Sequence record: MK524178.1 | Length of the DNA stretch: 64,000 nt | From: Escherichia phage PHB12 | Strand: one strand, 5' to 3' | Shown here: piece by piece, positions 1-60,002 of the stretch | Position numbering within the stretch: the first letter of the stretch is position 1 | How the letters are laid out: each line of letters starts with the position of its first letter | Notes under the pieces: generated by a model | What the model saw: the letters and a program-made list of their open reading frames with translations, nothing else | Database searches by the model: none | What the model was told of the DNA's origin: nothing | Program-made: the position numbers and the translations under genes

Positions 1-1009
1 ATGTGTCAGTGAATTCTAATACAGCTTTTGTGTAAAGCGCAACTACTTCTTTCTTAGGAGTAGAGGAATCAATTTCTACACGCACAGTATCTGGGTCGTA
101 TTCAAATGTCGCATGAGGATAATCCTTAAAAACTAACTGGATTACAGGGACACCTTTAGAGATGGCTTCAATAGAACTATTCTCTACCGTACCTGTGTTA
201 GGACACGTATTAATAAGTGCTTTAGCTGTTTTAAGACGTTCCATGATTTCACTGTGTGGAGCATCAATAATAACAGGATATTTAGCTGGTGGTGCCCATT
301 TGCTTGGACAGTATCCTACACCATTTTCGCCTAGTGCTTTAATCGCTTCAAGAGCAACATCAGTACGACGCATTTTAGTGTCATAACGTTGTGCACTAAT
401 AATCAGATCAGTCGCCGGAAGAACTTCAGGTTTCTCATTCAAACAAATAACCGGATAATCTTCGGCTTCAAACAACGGATTTGCTCGCCAATAATCATAA
501 TCAATTTTGTCAGTCAGACCTGAAGTCATATAACAATATTTGCGTTCAAATTCACGGAAGGCTTTAGTAGGAGCATAACTCTTACCACCATTCTTATGAA
601 TTTGAATAGTCTGGTCCCAAATTTGAACAATGCCACGAGATACAGGTTCAAATGGTGTTGCCATAAAATTCTTATGAACTTTAGAGAGACCTGCGTCTTT
701 AATTGCCTGAACGGTTAGTTTAGTCGGTTCCATAGTAACAACAAAATCGTATTCATGGATGCCGGCTAGTTCAACAATCTTACGAGCCATAGTATAACTC
801 ATACCTAGACTGAATTTAGTCAGATGACCAACAGGATGGTGTGTAACTTTCCAGTCACCAAACGTGTCATTATCAAAACCGATATAATCAATATCAGCAC
901 CAATAGAAACTAAATATTTCAACACATTTAAATGTACTGCTTCAAGGCCACCTTGTACACGGTCAGGATTAAATGGGACTGCACGAGATGGGATAAACAT
1001 AACTTTCAT
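1..1009 (-). CDS. GT-B fold glycosyltransferase, N-terminal ~336 aa (C-terminus lies beyond window edge); candidate DNA sugar transferase
   Basis: Minus-strand translation from ATG at 1009..1007 gives MKVMFIPSRAVPFNPDRVQGGLEAVHLNVLKYLVSIGADIDYIGFD..., open to position 1; absent from ORF track because its stop is outside the window. N-terminus resembles GT1/GT4 and T4 alpha-glucosyltransferase (hydrophobic strand, then GG-x-E). Confidence 0.5.
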   Translation of the reverse strand, partial: MKVMFIPSRAVPFNPDRVQGGLEAVHLNVLKYLVSIGADIDYIGFDNDTFGDWKVTHHPVGHLTKFSLGMSYTMARKIVELAGIHEYDFVVTMEPTKLTVQAIKDAGLSKVHKNFMATPFEPVSRGIVQIWDQTIQIHKNGGKSYAPTKAFREFERKYCYMTSGLTDKIDYDYWRANPLFEAEDYPVICLNEKPEVLPATDLIISAQRYDTKMRRTDVALEAIKALGENGVGYCPSKWAPPAKYPVIIDAPHSEIMERLKTAKALINTCPNTGTVENSSIEAISKGVPVIQLVFKDYPHATFEYDPDTVRVEIDSSTPKKEVVALYTKAVLEFTDT

Positions 1010-1052: not shown

Positions 1053-2868
1053 AGGACATCCATTCTTTACGAAGTTCTGAATCATCACCCAACAACATTT
1101 CAAAGAGTTCTTTCCAATTTTCAGGAAGTTTAACTACGTCGTACACAGGGTTTTGAATCATTTCACGATATTCTGACTTTTCAAGGGAGCCCAATCCCTT
1201 GATGTATCGAATACTATGCTTAGGCAGTGTATCTTTAGCTTCTTCATACTCAGCTACAGTATAAAACCATTTTTGAGTTTTGCCAATTTGTGCAATAATT
1301 ACAGGCGTTTTAACAAAGCGAATACGTCCTTGTTCAAACAATTCAGGCCAATTACTAAAGAAAGCAAGCAAAGCCGGATAAATACTTCCAAGACCGTCAT
1401 GATCGGCATCGGTCATAATTGCAATATTACGATAGTTCGTATTCTCTGCCTTTTCACCAAGAATAAGACCTGTGATAGCACAGATATCAAAGAGCTCTTT
1501 GTTCTTCATCATATCAGCATATGACATACCCCAGCTATTCATTACCTTACCACGTAATGGGAACCCGCCGTGTAGTTCACGGTCACGAACATCAATGAGA
1601 TAACCAATTGCCGAATCACCTTCTGTTAAAAACAATGTCGTATCTGCATCTTTACCACATTGGTTAGCTTTAATATGCTTATGAACCTTAGCTTTAGTTG
1701 CCTTTTTAGCTGCTTTAGTTTCTGCAGCCTTTTCTGCTGCCAATTTACGAGCTAATGCTGCTTCAACAATAGGCATAATCAAGGCTTCGTTTTTAAGAAG
1801 TGCCTGAGCAATTTTCTTAGTATCTAATTGGATATGATTACGAATATCACCATACGTTGACGTTAAACGTTCTTTAGTCTGAGAATCAAAACGCATGTTG
1901 CTCATGTCTCTAATAAACATCAACATTGTGAGACATTCTTTAACACGAGCTTTAGTGACTTCAATACCCTTATATTTCTTTTTAATACCAGGCAAAAGAT
2001 GTTCGCAGATATCATCCATTACACATTCAACGTGATGACCGCCATTTTTAGTATGGATGTTATTCACATAAGTTAAATGTCGGAAGCCATCTGGTGATGT
2101 TGTGAATGCTATAGAGACTTTATCATTTTCTTGAATGATGTTATCTTCGCCAAATTGTTTAGCAAATCGTTTAAAATTACCATCAACCTTTTTACCATTA
2201 AATGTGAACTTGATATCAGGATAAACGACTGCCAATGTTTGAAGTCGGTCTAAAGTAATATCTAAATAAATTTGAGATAAATTATGCTCTTCAAATGAAG
2301 AGAAATCAGGAGTGAAGATTACTTTAGTGCCTTTACCTTTAGATTTCTTAGAAGACCATGATTTGTTTTCCATTCCGTTTGAACAGTTAACAGTGATTTC
2401 ATTTTCGCCATCTGACGTGATGCCTGTAAACAACGTAGAGAAGATATTAGTTAAACTACTCCCGACGCCGTTCATACCACCAGTCTTACGTTCAGAGTCA
2501 TCGCCAAAGTTACCACCAGCCTTTGGAATAGTCCAGGCTGCTACAGGCCCAGGAATTTGTTCACCTGTTTGGTCGGTAACTAAACCTTGAGGAATACCAC
2601 GCCCGTTATCTTCCACCGAAACTTGATTATTTTTAATTTGCACATCAATTTTATTTGCAAACTTAAATGATGTACGAATAGCTTCATCAACCGAGTTGTC
2701 AATAATCTCATCGATTAATTTAACCAGACCAGGAACATATTCAACTTGTTGATATTTACCAAACAAAAAACGCTCGTGGGCTTCTTTGGCCGAAGAACCA
2801 ATATACATGCCACTACGTTTCTTAATATGTTCTACATCTGACAATACCTTAATTTCATTTTTAATCAT
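1051..2868 (-). CDS. 39: DNA topoisomerase II large (ATPase) subunit, fused 39+60 form
   Basis: 605 aa; N-terminus MIKNEIKVLSDVEHIKKRSGMYIGS and GHKL motif DNGRGIP match T4 gp39; length implies the region that is separate gene 60 in T4 is fused in. Confidence 0.9.
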   Translation of the reverse strand: MIKNEIKVLSDVEHIKKRSGMYIGSSAKEAHERFLFGKYQQVEYVPGLVKLIDEIIDNSVDEAIRTSFKFANKIDVQIKNNQVSVEDNGRGIPQGLVTDQTGEQIPGPVAAWTIPKAGGNFGDDSERKTGGMNGVGSSLTNIFSTLFTGITSDGENEITVNCSNGMENKSWSSKKSKGKGTKVIFTPDFSSFEEHNLSQIYLDITLDRLQTLAVVYPDIKFTFNGKKVDGNFKRFAKQFGEDNIIQENDKVSIAFTTSPDGFRHLTYVNNIHTKNGGHHVECVMDDICEHLLPGIKKKYKGIEVTKARVKECLTMLMFIRDMSNMRFDSQTKERLTSTYGDIRNHIQLDTKKIAQALLKNEALIMPIVEAALARKLAAEKAAETKAAKKATKAKVHKHIKANQCGKDADTTLFLTEGDSAIGYLIDVRDRELHGGFPLRGKVMNSWGMSYADMMKNKELFDICAITGLILGEKAENTNYRNIAIMTDADHDGLGSIYPALLAFFSNWPELFEQGRIRFVKTPVIIAQIGKTQKWFYTVAEYEEAKDTLPKHSIRYIKGLGSLEKSEYREMIQNPVYDVVKLPENWKELFEMLLGDDSELRKEWMS

Positions 2869-2914
2869 GTTGTCTCCTCGTTATGAAGGTATTCTATCAT
2901 CCGAAATCTAAAGC

Positions 2915-41274: not shown

Positions 41275-41745
41275 TTAATCATGTTTCCACACCCCATCGG
41301 TATTTGACCAAAGTCGCTGATTATCTGATCCTCGCCACAGTTTTTTGGTCGGAAAATTTTTCTCATACTTCCCATCAATAATAACATCAACATATTTAAG
41401 CATTTCTAGTTGTTTAATATCTTCAAACTTATATCCTGTCCACAACCAAATGCTTTTATTGGGATAAAGATTTTTTACTGTTTGAGCAATGCAATGAACA
41501 ACATCTCTGTTATCAGGATAGAGAGGGTCTCCTCCAGTTATAGTTAATCCTTCTATATAATCATTATTCAAACATTCAATTAATTGTTCTAGCGTTTCAT
41601 CCGTGAATGGAATACCATTTCTAGCATTCCATGTTGATTTATTATAACACCCTTCACATTTATGCAAACAACCTGTAACGAAAAGAACGACCCTGCATCC
41701 AGGGCCATTCACAAAATCGCAGGGATAAAATCTATCATAATTCAT
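41275..41745 (-). CDS. nrdG: anaerobic ribonucleotide reductase activating protein (radical SAM)
   Basis: 156 aa; CLHKCEGC (C-x3-C-x2-C) near N-terminus. Confidence 0.9.
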   Translation of the reverse strand: MNYDRFYPCDFVNGPGCRVVLFVTGCLHKCEGCYNKSTWNARNGIPFTDETLEQLIECLNNDYIEGLTITGGDPLYPDNRDVVHCIAQTVKNLYPNKSIWLWTGYKFEDIKQLEMLKYVDVIIDGKYEKNFPTKKLWRGSDNQRLWSNTDGVWKHD

Positions 41746-43559
41746 TGGTGTTTAACCCTATGCATGATTTCTTTATTTTTACCGAGATTAAATCCGCGTT
41801 CGTTCGGATTTCCAAGATAACCGCATGTTCTTCTTATGGTGTTCATCTTTTTAGGATCAGTTTCTCCACAAACTGAACAAACAAATCCGTTTTCAGTAGG
41901 AGTCATTTCATGGGTACTTCCGCATGTAAAACATTTATCTACTGGCATGTTAACACCAAAATAATCTAAATGTTGCGCAGCATAATCCCATACGGCCTCA
42001 AGTCCTTTTAAGTTATTTTTCATATCAGGAAGTTCAACATAAGAAATGTGTCCGCCGGTCGCAATGAAATGATATGGTGCTTCGCGAGAAATCTTTTCAA
42101 ACGGAGTAATATTTTCTTCTACCGAAACGTGGAAACTATTAGTGTACCAGCCTTTATCAGTAACATCTTTTACACTTCCATATTTCTCAGTATCAAGTTT
42201 ACAGAAGCGATAGCACAGGTTTTCAGCGGGTGTAGAATACAAGCTAAAAGCAAAACCAGTTCTTTCGGTCCACTGCTTAAGACGAGCATTCATTTTAGTT
42301 AAAATTTCTTGTCCAATATCACGACCGACAAGAATATTCAATTCGTGAATACCAATGTATCCTAAGGACACCGAACTTCTACCGTTTTTAAATAACTCAA
42401 TTATATCATCGTCAGGTTTCAGACGAACCCCAAATGCACCTTCTTGGTAAAGAATAGGAGCAACTGTTGCTTTAACTCCTTTTAATGAACTAATTCTACA
42501 CATCAATGCTTCAAAACACAGATCCATTCGTTCATTAAATAGCTCAACAAATTTCTGTTCATTGAATTGTGTTCCAATATAAGAATCTAACGCAATACGA
42601 GGAAGATTCAGTGTTACAACACCAAGATTATTACGTCCATCAAGAATTTCATTACCAGTCGAATCTTTCCATACACTCAAGAAACTACGACAACCCATTG
42701 GAGAAACAGGAATAGATGAACCAGTGATAGCTTTATTGTTCTTAACTGAAATAATATCAGGATACATTCTTTTGCTTGCACACTCTAGAGCAAGCTGCTT
42801 AATATCATAGTTCGGGTCGTCTTTATAAAGATTGACACCCTCTTCAACGAACATAACAAGTTTAGGGAAAATAGGAGTTATTCCATCACGACCAAGGCCT
42901 TTAATGCGGTTTTTAAGAATTGCCTTCTGAATCATTCGTTCAGTCCAATCGGTTCCCGTACCAAATGTAATTGTTACAAAAGGCGTTTGTCCGTTTGAAC
43001 TAAAGAGAGTATTTACTTCATATTCATAAGCTTGGAATGCATCGTATACGTCTTTTTCTGTTTTAGATTGGGCATAATTCAACGCATCAGCGATTTGCCA
43101 TTTTTCTGCATCCTCAATATGTTTTGCATAGGTGCGTTTAACATAAGGAGAAAGTACTTTATCTACATTCGCAAAAGTCGTTCCGCCATATTGATGGGAA
43201 GCGACCTGTGCAGTAATTTGTGCCATAATTGCAGTAGCAACACCGATCGATTTAGGCGTTTCAATTTGAGCATTACCTAGCTTAAATCCGTTCTCAAGCA
43301 TTCCTTTTAAATCTACTAAACAGCAATTAGTAAACGGAAGAGCAGGAGAATAATCAATATCATGGAAATGGATAATTCCGCTTTCATGTGCTTTCATAAT
43401 AAAAGACGGGACCATATTTTTGGCAATGTGCTTAGACACAATACCAGCCATAAGGTCCCGTTGAGTTGGAAAAACACGAGAATCTTTATTAGCATTCTCG
43501 TTCAAAAGATCTTTATTAGTTTTATGAATTAATCCTTCAATTTCTTTTTCAATTTTCAT
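41742..43559 (-). CDS. nrdD: anaerobic ribonucleotide reductase (glycyl radical enzyme), uninterrupted
   Basis: 605 aa; C-terminal Zn cysteines and glycyl-radical motif RTCGYLG; continuous frame, no intron. Confidence 0.95.
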   Translation of the reverse strand: MKIEKEIEGLIHKTNKDLLNENANKDSRVFPTQRDLMAGIVSKHIAKNMVPSFIMKAHESGIIHFHDIDYSPALPFTNCCLVDLKGMLENGFKLGNAQIETPKSIGVATAIMAQITAQVASHQYGGTTFANVDKVLSPYVKRTYAKHIEDAEKWQIADALNYAQSKTEKDVYDAFQAYEYEVNTLFSSNGQTPFVTITFGTGTDWTERMIQKAILKNRIKGLGRDGITPIFPKLVMFVEEGVNLYKDDPNYDIKQLALECASKRMYPDIISVKNNKAITGSSIPVSPMGCRSFLSVWKDSTGNEILDGRNNLGVVTLNLPRIALDSYIGTQFNEQKFVELFNERMDLCFEALMCRISSLKGVKATVAPILYQEGAFGVRLKPDDDIIELFKNGRSSVSLGYIGIHELNILVGRDIGQEILTKMNARLKQWTERTGFAFSLYSTPAENLCYRFCKLDTEKYGSVKDVTDKGWYTNSFHVSVEENITPFEKISREAPYHFIATGGHISYVELPDMKNNLKGLEAVWDYAAQHLDYFGVNMPVDKCFTCGSTHEMTPTENGFVCSVCGETDPKKMNTIRRTCGYLGNPNERGFNLGKNKEIMHRVKHQ

Positions 43560-44029
43560 TTTAAACTCTTTCTAAGCTGCTTTTTGAATGAAGCTATTAA
43601 TTGTGTTTTGGTATCAGATTCATTATATTCAAATCCTCTTTGAAGCATCTCAGCCATCATTTCCTCTTTACCTAGTCTTGAGAACTCTTTAGTTTTGTCT
43701 GGAACAAAATTAGGATGGATATTATTATCAGAATAATCTTGTTTCAAATAAGCAAGAAGAGCTTCAAGCCATTCTAAGTAGTCAACGTTTTGTCCTTTCA
43801 AACCGGAACGGTTGAACTTATGCTTCATTTGGCCTTCTGCTGCGTTGCACAGATTACAGAGTAACCCACGAACTCTACCTGCTTTTGGCCCGTTTAATTC
43901 GTGGTCGTGGTCAAGATGGTTACCTTGAACATCAGGGTCTAATTCACGGTGGCAAATAGGACACTTACCATTCTGTGCATCATAAAATTTTTGTTTTTCT
44001 TCTTTATATTTTGCGCCTGATAATAACAT
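43556..44029 (-). CDS. 49: endonuclease VII (Holliday junction resolvase)
   Basis: 157 aa; CPICHREL, HLDHDHE, CNLCN motifs; TATAAATA late promoter upstream. Confidence 0.85.
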   Translation of the reverse strand: MLLSGAKYKEEKQKFYDAQNGKCPICHRELDPDVQGNHLDHDHELNGPKAGRVRGLLCNLCNAAEGQMKHKFNRSGLKGQNVDYLEWLEALLAYLKQDYSDNNIHPNFVPDKTKEFSRLGKEEMMAEMLQRGFEYNESDTKTQLIASFKKQLRKSLK

Positions 44030-58093: not shown

Positions 58094-58309
58094 TTATTGA
58101 TAAAATGGAGTTAAAGCCCAAGATTCTTTAGATACCATGTTGGCGAAATGCCTCATCTCTTCGATTTGGCGACGACGCTGGTCAGCATAGTCTTCTTCGC
58201 CTTCTTCCTTACAATCTTCAAGGTCTTCTTCAAGATACTTTAAGTATTCACTACAAATTTTGTTGACCTTTTCTTGAAAGTCCAATAACCCAGTAATAGT
58301 AGAAGCCAT
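58094..58309 (-). CDS. hypothetical acidic protein
   Basis: 71-aa ORF. Confidence 0.35.
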   Translation of the reverse strand: MASTITGLLDFQEKVNKICSEYLKYLEEDLEDCKEEGEEDYADQRRRQIEEMRHFANMVSKESWALTPFYQ

Positions 58310-58575
58310 TAGTATTTTTCCTCAGGTCGAAATACTGCACGACATGCCCACATGCTGGCTTCTTTTAGATGTTGCTTAGCATACTTAAGAGCCTGCACTG
58401 CATCCATATCTTCTTTGGTTTGTTGCTCTGATTCATTTTCTTTCAAGATATATGCTTCTTCAATCAGAGCATCAAACATCAATCCAAGACGGACTTCTGC
58501 ATCTTTAATAGCGTTCACTTTACTGATTTTATCATCGGTATGCGGCTTGTAGCCTTTGATGTCTTCAATCGACAT
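58309..58575 (-). CDS. hypothetical protein
   Basis: Start at MSIEDIKGYK after GAGGAAA; the track's longer N-terminus is out-of-frame overlap. Confidence 0.4.
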   Translation of the reverse strand: MSIEDIKGYKPHTDDKISKVNAIKDAEVRLGLMFDALIEEAYILKENESEQQTKEDMDAVQALKYAKQHLKEASMWACRAVFRPEEKY

Positions 58576-58789
58576 AAGGAATTTCCTCATCGGTGGCAAG
58601 GTCATATTCGACCAATTGGATAGGCTCGTTAATACCATATCCACGTACAGTGATATCGGTTGTCGGATATTTTCCAGTAATATCACCCATTCTAAATGCT
58701 TCAGTGAATGATTGCTCGCCTGAGCAACTAAACCAGGCGGCAAAACATTTTAAAACATCTTCAGACCCTTCTATAATCAATTTAGCCAT
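58565..58789 (-). CDS. hypothetical protein
   Basis: 74-aa ORF. Confidence 0.35.
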   Translation of the reverse strand: MAKLIIEGSEDVLKCFAAWFSCSGEQSFTEAFRMGDITGKYPTTDITVRGYGINEPIQLVEYDLATDEEIPYVD

Positions 58790-59151
58790 TATAGACTCTC
58801 AGTAAAGGTACGAGCGATAACGTCGCGTTGCTGTTCTGGAGTCAGAGAGTTAAAGCGAACTGCATAACCGGATACACGGATGGTCAGCTGTGGATATTTT
58901 TCCGGATGCTTAACTGCATCTTCCAGAGTTTCACGACGCAGAACGTTAACGTTCAGATGTTGACCACCTTCAATTTTAACTTTAGGTTGATGTTCAATTT
59001 CAATTTCACGGGCATTCAAACCGTAGAAAATTTCCGGGTCTACAATAGCGTCTTCTTTAAAAGTCTTAGAGACGATAATCCGGGCTTGAGTACCGTCTTC
59101 AAAATAAATAGTGCCTTTATGTGCACCTTCAAGAATTTGATATGCTTTCAT
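58789..59151 (-). CDS. autonomous glycyl radical cofactor (GrcA/YfiD-like)
   Basis: 120 aa; C-terminal [56 protein letters not shown] is the glycyl-radical domain of PFL/GrcA (radical Gly in RVSGYAV). Confidence 0.8.
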
Positions 59152-59157
59152 ATAACC

Positions 59158-59466
59158 TCAATTAGAAAATAAATTTATCCAAGATTTTTCTTTAATCAAA
59201 AATGGGTCGGAATTAAACGCCATTAAACTTTGAGTGATTAATCCCTTAAATGGCCCATCAATAAATTCCATTTTGAAATGTGGAATACTAGTCATCAACC
59301 GTGCATTAGGAGCAGTACAAAGAACGTGCTGCCCTGCGAACGGACCTTTAGTCAAACGATATCGTTTAGGTTTAAAATGGTAAATCTCGTAATTTTCTAC
59401 AAGAGCCCTTTTATTGCATACTGGGCTGTTATAACAATACTCAAAAACTTCAATAGTGGTCATCAT
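59158..59466 (-). CDS. hypothetical protein
   Basis: Start at MMTTIEVFEY. Confidence 0.4.
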   Translation of the reverse strand: MMTTIEVFEYCYNSPVCNKRALVENYEIYHFKPKRYRLTKGPFAGQHVLCTAPNARLMTSIPHFKMEFIDGPFKGLITQSLMAFNSDPFLIKEKSWINLFSN

Positions 59467-60002
59467 TGCATTCCAATCACAAAAAATTGAGGACGAGCAA
59501 TACCGCCGATGCAATATTTGCTTTTGCAGCAGTGCTGTACTGATTTAATATGGACATTGTAAATCTTATCCATATCAGGAGCTTTAATAGGCTCGTCAAT
59601 TATATACAGAATACGAGAAAGCGTTAATCCACGGAATTTAGAACCTTCATTGCCAATAAAACTACGGACAGAATCAGTAAATAAACGGAATCGAATATCA
59701 TCGCTAGAATAACGAGAAAATTCTTTTTTAATGTTGCCAACAGAAATTTTAGCATAAGCTGAAGTATTAGAAAGAACAATAACTGTTCCACCGTCGTACA
59801 GCCAATTAACAGCAAAATTAGTTACTGCGGTCGATTTACCTGATTGTCTGCCGCCGTCTAAACGAAGTGTACAGTACTGCTTGAGTACGTCTTCAAATGG
59901 CGGGATATAACCATTCTTACAAATTTCTTCTACTCTAGCATCAGAATGGTGTGTAAAAGCATTCATCAGGGATAGATAAGGTCCGGTTAAAAATGTTCTC
60001 AT
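59463..60002 (-). CDS. small P-loop NTPase
   Basis: 179 aa; Walker A GGRQSGKST, Walker B ILYIIDEP. Confidence 0.45.
   Translation of the reverse strand: MRTFLTGPYLSLMNAFTHHSDARVEEICKNGYIPPFEDVLKQYCTLRLDGGRQSGKSTAVTNFAVNWLYDGGTVIVLSNTSAYAKISVGNIKKEFSRYSSDDIRFRLFTDSVRSFIGNEGSKFRGLTLSRILYIIDEPIKAPDMDKIYNVHIKSVQHCCKSKYCIGGIARPQFFVIGMQ

Follow-up and report, generated by a model that had tools for sequence, protein, structure and literature searches.

The gene vs.6 in the 64,000-nucleotide stretch of Escherichia phage PHB12 analysed here (sequence record MK524178.1; the window) very probably encodes a GrcA-type spare part for the pyruvate formate-lyase (PFL) of the host, with a 3′ half derived from Escherichia grcA. 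The functional kind of vs.6 is already known from its T4 ortholog (Vs.6, or Y06I), characterised in 2001, and GrcA is the name that many records already give the gene, so that the functional novelty is very small. What is added to existing knowledge is the nearly host-identical 3′ tract of the gene, together with a pattern that suggests recurrent host-to-phage gene conversion.

Gene, neighbourhood and protein of vs.6

The open reading frame runs from ATG to TAA and specifies a product of 120 amino acids and 13.8 kDa on the minus strand (Table 1), so the gene proposed in an earlier reading of the letters (the sequence-only reading) was borne out as complete. Its stop codon overlaps the start of vs.5 (TAATG). 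Scans for a promoter or terminator of its own gave nothing above shuffled expectation, and no MotA box was found within 2.4 kb upstream; lacking its own promoter, vs.6 is taken to be read within a leftward vs.8-vs.7-vs.6-vs.5-vs.4 unit. The surrounding 2 kb are 97.6-98.5% identical to RB69-like phages (Mosigvirus). Judged by sequence, the window is that of an RB69-like Mosigvirus and its vs.6 is the Mosigvirus (RB69-type) ortholog of T4 vs.6/Y06I. The RB69 gene, also vs.6 (RB69p120), has the product name ‘autonomous glycyl radical cofactor GrcA’ and lies in the leftward block vs.8-vs.7-vs.6-vs.5-vs.4-(ORF117)-regB-vs.1-vs-tk.4-tk. The order is the same in T4, where vs.6 is likewise flanked by vs.7 and vs.5, with vs.4 (Acb2) and regB downstream. 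T4 thus carries such a gene in the same neighbourhood, as had been supposed: both proteins have 120 residues, 113 of them identical (94%), including all 63 from residue 58 to residue 120. The seven substitutions (A10T, T21I, A35S, I36F, N46H, H54P and K57T) all fall in the N-terminal half.

Table 1. Features of vs.6 and its context, numbered from the first letter of the window
Feature	Coordinates	Strand	Evidence
vs.6 CDS, phage GrcA/YfiD-type autonomous glycyl radical cofactor	58789..59151	-	ORF, Pfam, TIGR04365, 6owr, RB69 annotation, phrog_1209
vs.6 5′ part (N-terminal half)	58974..59151	-	alignment, BLASTP against GrcA N-terminus, dS/dN, GC3
Host-identical tract, end of codon 60 to codon 118, encoding the glycyl radical domain	58799..58973	-	
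Glycyl radical loop RVSGYAV, residues 92-98	58858..58878	-	sequence read, motif search, alignment with 6owr and 1h16
Radical glycine Gly95, equivalent to GrcA Gly102 / PflB Gly734	58867..58869	-	
Shine-Dalgarno GAGG, 4 nt upstream of the vs.6 ATG	59156..59159	-	
nrdG, anaerobic ribonucleotide reductase activase (context only)	41275..41745	-	Pfam Fer4_12 / Radical_SAM
nrdD, phage anaerobic ribonucleotide reductase (context only)	41742..43559	-	Pfam NRDD, E=8e-172

Two neighbouring genes were inspected as well. The vs.4 ortholog (58309..58575, minus strand), two genes downstream of vs.6, has a Pfam PF24729 Acb2/Tad1 hairpin domain (E=3e-17), and its product is Acb2, an anti-CBASS cyclic-nucleotide sponge; the ORF list extends this frame to 58743 with a TTG start, and the RB69 annotation starts at the equivalent of 58575. 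The vs.8 ortholog (59463..60002, minus strand) weakly resembles the N-terminal ATPase of the terminase large subunit (Terminase_6N, E=0.0096; phrog_2, E=1e-6) and is named a P-loop NTPase in some records.

The C-terminal half of the vs.6 protein is a PFL-type glycyl radical domain. Residues 57-120 correspond to GrcA 64-127 with 64/64 identities and align with PflB 696-759 with 49/64 (77%), and the Gly loop RVSGYAV is identical to that of PFL and GrcA, which bears out the C-terminal match claimed from the sequence. The PROSITE-type signature [STIV]-x-R-[IVT]-[CSA]-G-Y-x-[GACV] is present as TIRVSGYAV at residue 90. Similarity to GrcA beyond chance, on which the sequence-only reading had staked its proposal, is plain from the match to the E. 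coli GrcA structure 6owr (E=2e-42) and to Pfam Gly_radical PF01228 (E=2e-18); the PflB structure 1h16 was matched with E=3e-26. The protein is small and standalone and has no catalytic barrel. It is therefore no enzyme by itself, and the labels ‘pyruvate formate-lyase’ and ‘2-ketobutyrate formate-lyase’ on phage homologs are misnomers.

The N-terminal half had been called different, and it has indeed diverged, with about 28% identity to GrcA over the first 60 aligned codons; it is nevertheless still homologous to GrcA. The N-terminal 58 residues alone matched the GrcA N-terminus by BLASTP (E=1e-5, 37% over 38 aa), a weak but significant match, the NCBIfam GrcA profile TIGR04365 aligned with residues 18-120, and the motifs ARxIVSK, FxED and REIxIE are retained in this half across phage genera. 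Given this homology, the whole of vs.6 is a diverged GrcA and not a PFL tail fused to a novelty. The TIGR04365 score of 159.1 bits lies below the curated equivalog cut-off of 170 because the N-terminus has diverged, and vs.6 is therefore placed within the GrcA kind as its phage Vs.6 branch rather than among the strict equivalogs of bacterial GrcA.

The profile phrog_1209 was matched over its entire length (1-121/121) by residues 1-120 (E=9e-63). In PHROGs this family is labelled ‘unknown function’, and labels for vs.6 in phage records range from hypothetical through ‘pyruvate formate-lyase’, ‘2-ketobutyrate formate-lyase’ and ‘acetyltransferase-related’ to GrcA, the name already used in the RefSeq records of RB69 and of phages SF and phi25-307, among others. 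In record OK274152, vs.5 is also labelled GrcA and vs.7 is labelled RegB-domain. A useful point of annotation is thus that PHROGs and many GenBank phage labels miss the GrcA-type identity of vs.6. A further family, phrog_21327 (760 positions), was matched at positions 697-759 by vs.6 residues 57-119; a full-length PFL-like protein is apparently present in some phage or prophage records.

Host-like DNA in the radical-domain half

The two halves of vs.6 differ sharply in their distance from E. coli grcA. Within 58799..58973 the DNA is 97.7% identical to grcA, with 4 mismatches in 175 nt, all of them synonymous; host identity sets in with the final two bases of codon 60 (58973), and the last three codons differ. 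Comparison of the first 60 aligned codons was saturated (93 differences in 180 nt, dS~1.5, dN 0.76), whereas the last 60 codons had 7 differences, all synonymous (dS 0.17), a contrast between 5′ and 3′ halves with a Fisher P of 2e-26. The equivalent stretch of T4 is identical to E. coli grcA at 178/178 nt and that of RB69 has 2 mismatches; the tract holds 4 private synonymous changes in the window phage, against 0 in T4. All complete E. coli genomes searched (5,426/5,426) matched, with identities of up to 96.2% for the window tract and of 98.9% for that of T4, and a 185-nt block with the same start base and 95.7-99.5% identity to E. coli grcA occurs in 638 phage records. A megablast search of the 64-kb window against the 5,426 E. 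coli genomes found no other E. coli-matching DNA.

The 180-nt C-terminal blocks of the phage genes were compared with those of a sample of 80 bacterial grcA loci. Phage tracts lay closest to E. coli, at 2-7 nt; the next genus, Citrobacter, stood at 15-20 nt and the remaining bacteria at a median of 27-29 nt. Neighbour joining put T4, RB69 and the window in one clade with Escherichia (98% bootstrap). The 5′ half has a GC3 of 0.18-0.25 (window 0.25) and the tract one of 0.35-0.43, the E. coli value being 0.43. The near-identity, the distances, the tree and the GC3 shift together show that the transfer went from host to phage, with Escherichia as the donor. Codon bias was rejected as the cause of the DNA identity, given the 31 synonymous differences in Enterobacter phage EC-W2 and a binomial P(<=7 differences) of 4e-8. 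Two bacterial loci call for comment in their own right: the genome of Vagococcus sp. WN89Y has an enterobacterial-type grcA (91% to E. coli) and looks mislabelled or contaminated, and grcA of Klebsiella sp. WOUb02 lies on a 275-kb ‘plasmid’.

Among the 80 loci, near-identity to a host grcA was confined to the T-even phages of E. coli. The corresponding blocks of Klebsiella (pKp20), Enterobacter (EC-W2), Krischvirus (Phi1), T5-like, Aeromonas and Vibrio phages were 19-66 nt from every sampled bacterium. A bacterial donor is hinted at in Klebsiella phage pKp20, whose residues here are of the Klebsiella/Salmonella type (LLDAVEH) and whose GC3 is 0.60 in this block but 0.23 in the 5′ half; with K. 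pneumoniae outside the grcA sample, a second case of host tracking is unproven.

The history of the tract was followed in the vs.6 genes of six Tequatrovirus and four Mosigvirus phages. Their 5′ 178 nt differ at 16-21 positions between the genera (mean 10.5%), whereas the tract shows no fixed difference between them (mean 2.7%); each of the ten phages departs from the E. coli sequence by 0-5 changes private to it, with tract identities of 97.7-100%. Within Mosigvirus the tract differences (4-9) slightly exceed those of the 5′ part (2-6). Tequatroviruses whose 5′ parts are only 0-2 nt apart lose host identity at different points within the last five codons, its right-hand end moving stepwise from phage to phage: the codons read TTC ACC GAG AGT TTG in Sf21, TTT ACC GAG AGT TTG in ECML-134, ACT GAA AGT TTG in T4, ACT GAG AGC TTG in APTC-EC-2A and ACT GAG AGC CTG in OES_C-2, with TTT ACT GAA AGC CTG in E. 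coli. The private changes, the missing fixed differences, the shifting end points and the tract's standing as the sole host match support repeated conversion. From these comparisons we give about an even chance to the reading that, in the T-evens of E. coli, the half of vs.6 encoding the radical domain has been overwritten repeatedly by homologous recombination with host grcA while the N-terminal half stayed phage-specific. Alternatively, the tract may have been captured once, recently, and then passed between phages by recombination with breakpoints precisely at its borders. Should recurrent conversion be the cause of the mosaic, vs.6 would be a clean natural case of continuing host-to-phage recombination in T-even phages, and a natural, ongoing marker of recombination between lytic phages with hmC-modified DNA and their host.

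Probable function and a possible tie to anaerobic nucleotide reduction

The proposed function draws on the T4 protein. According to Wagner 2001, a study from Knappe's group (BBRC 285:456; pmid 11444864), as reported in PMC8683613, both T4 Y06I and E. coli YfiD receive a glycyl radical from the PFL-activating enzyme, and either radicalised protein forms with oxygen-cleaved PFL a complex that regains activity. The rescue of oxygen-cleaved PFL in vitro, put forward as a check on the sequence-only reading, has by that account (Wagner 2001, via PMC8683613) in effect already been done for T4 Y06I. YfiD's N-terminal half (residues 1-60) is disordered and is required for binding to cPFL and for efficient activation (PMC8683613), and the radical is passed from GrcA Gly102 to PflB Cys419 in vivo (PMC12338860). 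By analogy with the T4 ortholog, we infer that the window protein is radicalised by PflA and rescues cleaved PFL. The protein would be produced early in infection, its N-terminal half helping to bind host PflB that oxygen has cut at Gly734 or that is inactive for another reason, and its C-terminal domain would substitute for PflB residues ~696-759. The PFL-activating enzyme of the host (PflA, radical SAM) would take hydrogen from Gly95, the Gly95 radical would generate a thiyl radical on PflB Cys419, and the restored PflB would again convert pyruvate and CoA to acetyl-CoA and formate. The 3′ half of the gene, on this reading, was acquired from Escherichia grcA through homologous recombination. 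The phage would presumably benefit from the supply of acetyl-CoA/ATP and formate in oxygen-stressed fermenting cells, fermentative ATP and formate being maintained in micro-oxic or anaerobic hosts. In the literature searched, which lacked most journals behind subscription (the T4 genome review among them), neither a phage phenotype for vs.6 nor a published description of its mosaic was found; it yielded citations of Wagner 2001 and the Pfam note of Nolan 2006.

As a mimic of the PFL/GrcA radical domain, the protein could in principle instead be a decoy that titrates host PflA or occupies PflB and so shuts down or redirects fermentation. Host-protein mimics are common in phages, and the half that has diverged in phages is the N-terminal one, which governs YfiD binding and activation. 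A pure blocker, however, needs no radical glycine, and in vs.6 Gly95 and the entire catalytic loop are strictly conserved, with dN = 0; moreover, T4 Y06I restored PFL activity in vitro, as PMC8683613 relates. We consider a decoy very unlikely.

Repair or supply of glycyl-radical enzymes in general, suggested from the sequence together with the phage's own nrdD and nrdG at 41275-43559, is supported for host PFL, in line with the T4 Y06I work, but not for such enzymes at large, in view of the PFL-type loop. The two nrd genes were confirmed by Pfam, but they lie 15 kb from vs.6, and a physical link did not stand: the association is thematic. The gene for endonuclease VII (gp49; 43556..44029, minus strand) sits immediately upstream of nrdD, its stop codon overlapping the nrdD start codon. 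Read broadly, this idea would make vs.6 a spare radical domain for phage NrdD, with phage NrdG as the activase. The window contains both genes, NrdD is likewise a glycyl radical enzyme cleaved by oxygen, a role in nucleotide metabolism was guessed by Nolan et al. 2006, and in Aeromonas phage phiAS5 a homolog directly follows nrdD-nrdG. The sequences speak otherwise. Window NrdD has the loop RTCGYLG (Gly580) behind a cysteine ribbon (CFTCG...CSVCG); vs.6 has RVSGYAV, with neither an RNR-type loop (R-x-C-G-Y-L-G) nor Zn-ribbon cysteines, and BLASTP found no similarity between the two proteins (E=2.6), whereas the vs.6 C-terminus is 100% identical to GrcA and 77% to PflB. The loop sequence governs activase specificity, PFL-AE accepting an RVSGYAV peptide as substrate but not the RNR loop RVCGYLG (PMC13450708), and T4 Y06I acts with PFL and PFL-AE according to the account in PMC8683613. 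With a PFL-type loop and no BLASTP similarity to NrdD, a spare part for NrdD was rejected on sequence and is scarcely credible; the radical domain is therefore taken to be supplied to host PFL, not to glycyl-radical enzymes generally.

A metabolic tie between vs.6 and nrdD is nonetheless plausible, in that class III RNR is reduced by formate, a product of PFL. Such reduction by formate is attributed to Mulliez 1995 in the citing literature, and T4 NrdD belongs to the NrdD1/NrdDc subclass, the same as the E. coli enzyme. Formate from rescued PFL could thus act as the reductant of formate-dependent class III RNRs, the group that includes T4 NrdD. In phiAS5 the genes run nrdD-nrdG-grcA-like-nrdC-nrdH, and the grcA-like gene (2501..2878 of a 3444-nt locus) overlaps the end of nrdG. 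This operon-like nrdD-nrdG-grcA-like arrangement, which is absent from T4 and RB69, fits a functional link with the anaerobic synthesis of dNTPs, and the path from PFL through formate to NrdD, taken with the phiAS5 gene order, provides a concrete hypothesis for what the phage gains.

Conservation across phages fits a selected function as a spare part for host PFL. Homologs of vs.6 were found in 1,588 phage records, 1,534 of which hold an intact full-length ORF; they occur in T4-like phages of Escherichia, Shigella, Klebsiella, Enterobacter, Citrobacter, Yersinia, Aeromonas and Vibrio and, at ~52% identity, in T5-like siphoviruses. Between vs.6 and GrcA, dN is 0 over the C-terminal 60 codons. 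Enterobacter phage EC-W2 has the same 60 C-terminal residues despite its 31 synonymous changes, which indicates strong purifying selection on the protein. The vs.6 gene of Escherichia phage OES_C-2 (Tequatrovirus) has a 6-nt deletion before the radical domain (REIETQPT against REIEIEPQPT) and an annotated CDS of 118 aa (89..445 of the extracted locus), so the linker tolerates indels. The least credible reading of all is that vs.6 has no function and is a mere passenger, a fragment of host grcA picked up through illegitimate or homologous recombination that has yet to be lost, since, for all that the 3′ tract is nearly identical to host DNA and the only host-like DNA in the window, the ORF is intact in the great majority of records from T4-like genera and T5-like siphoviruses, the N-terminal half is phage-specific and the EC-W2 protein sequence has been held constant.

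Comparison with known systems

Besides T4 Vs.6, a close known counterpart is E. coli GrcA (YfiD; 6owr; TIGR04365 / IPR011140), which is likewise small and standalone, has the RVSGYAV loop within a 64-residue C-terminal domain 100% identical to that of vs.6, and has an N-terminal region that can be aligned with it (ARxIVxK, FxED, REVxVE). The phage protein is 7 residues shorter, and its gene lies in the early block of a lytic phage, whereas E. coli grcA adjoins ung. With the radical domain of PflB (696-759; 1h16) and with that of TdcE, vs.6 has in common the Gly loop and the preceding beta-strand; it has no catalytic barrel of ~700 residues with Cys418/Cys419.

For the mosaic, the nearest parallel is cyanophage psbA, for which host-phage intragenic exchange was reportedly seen by Zeidner in 2005 and Sullivan in 2006. 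That gene, too, is a phage copy of a host metabolic gene in which mosaic segments have been swapped with host alleles. In vs.6, by comparison, the exchange would be limited to one half of a very small gene, the other half being phage-specific, and it would take place in coliphages with hmC-modified DNA.
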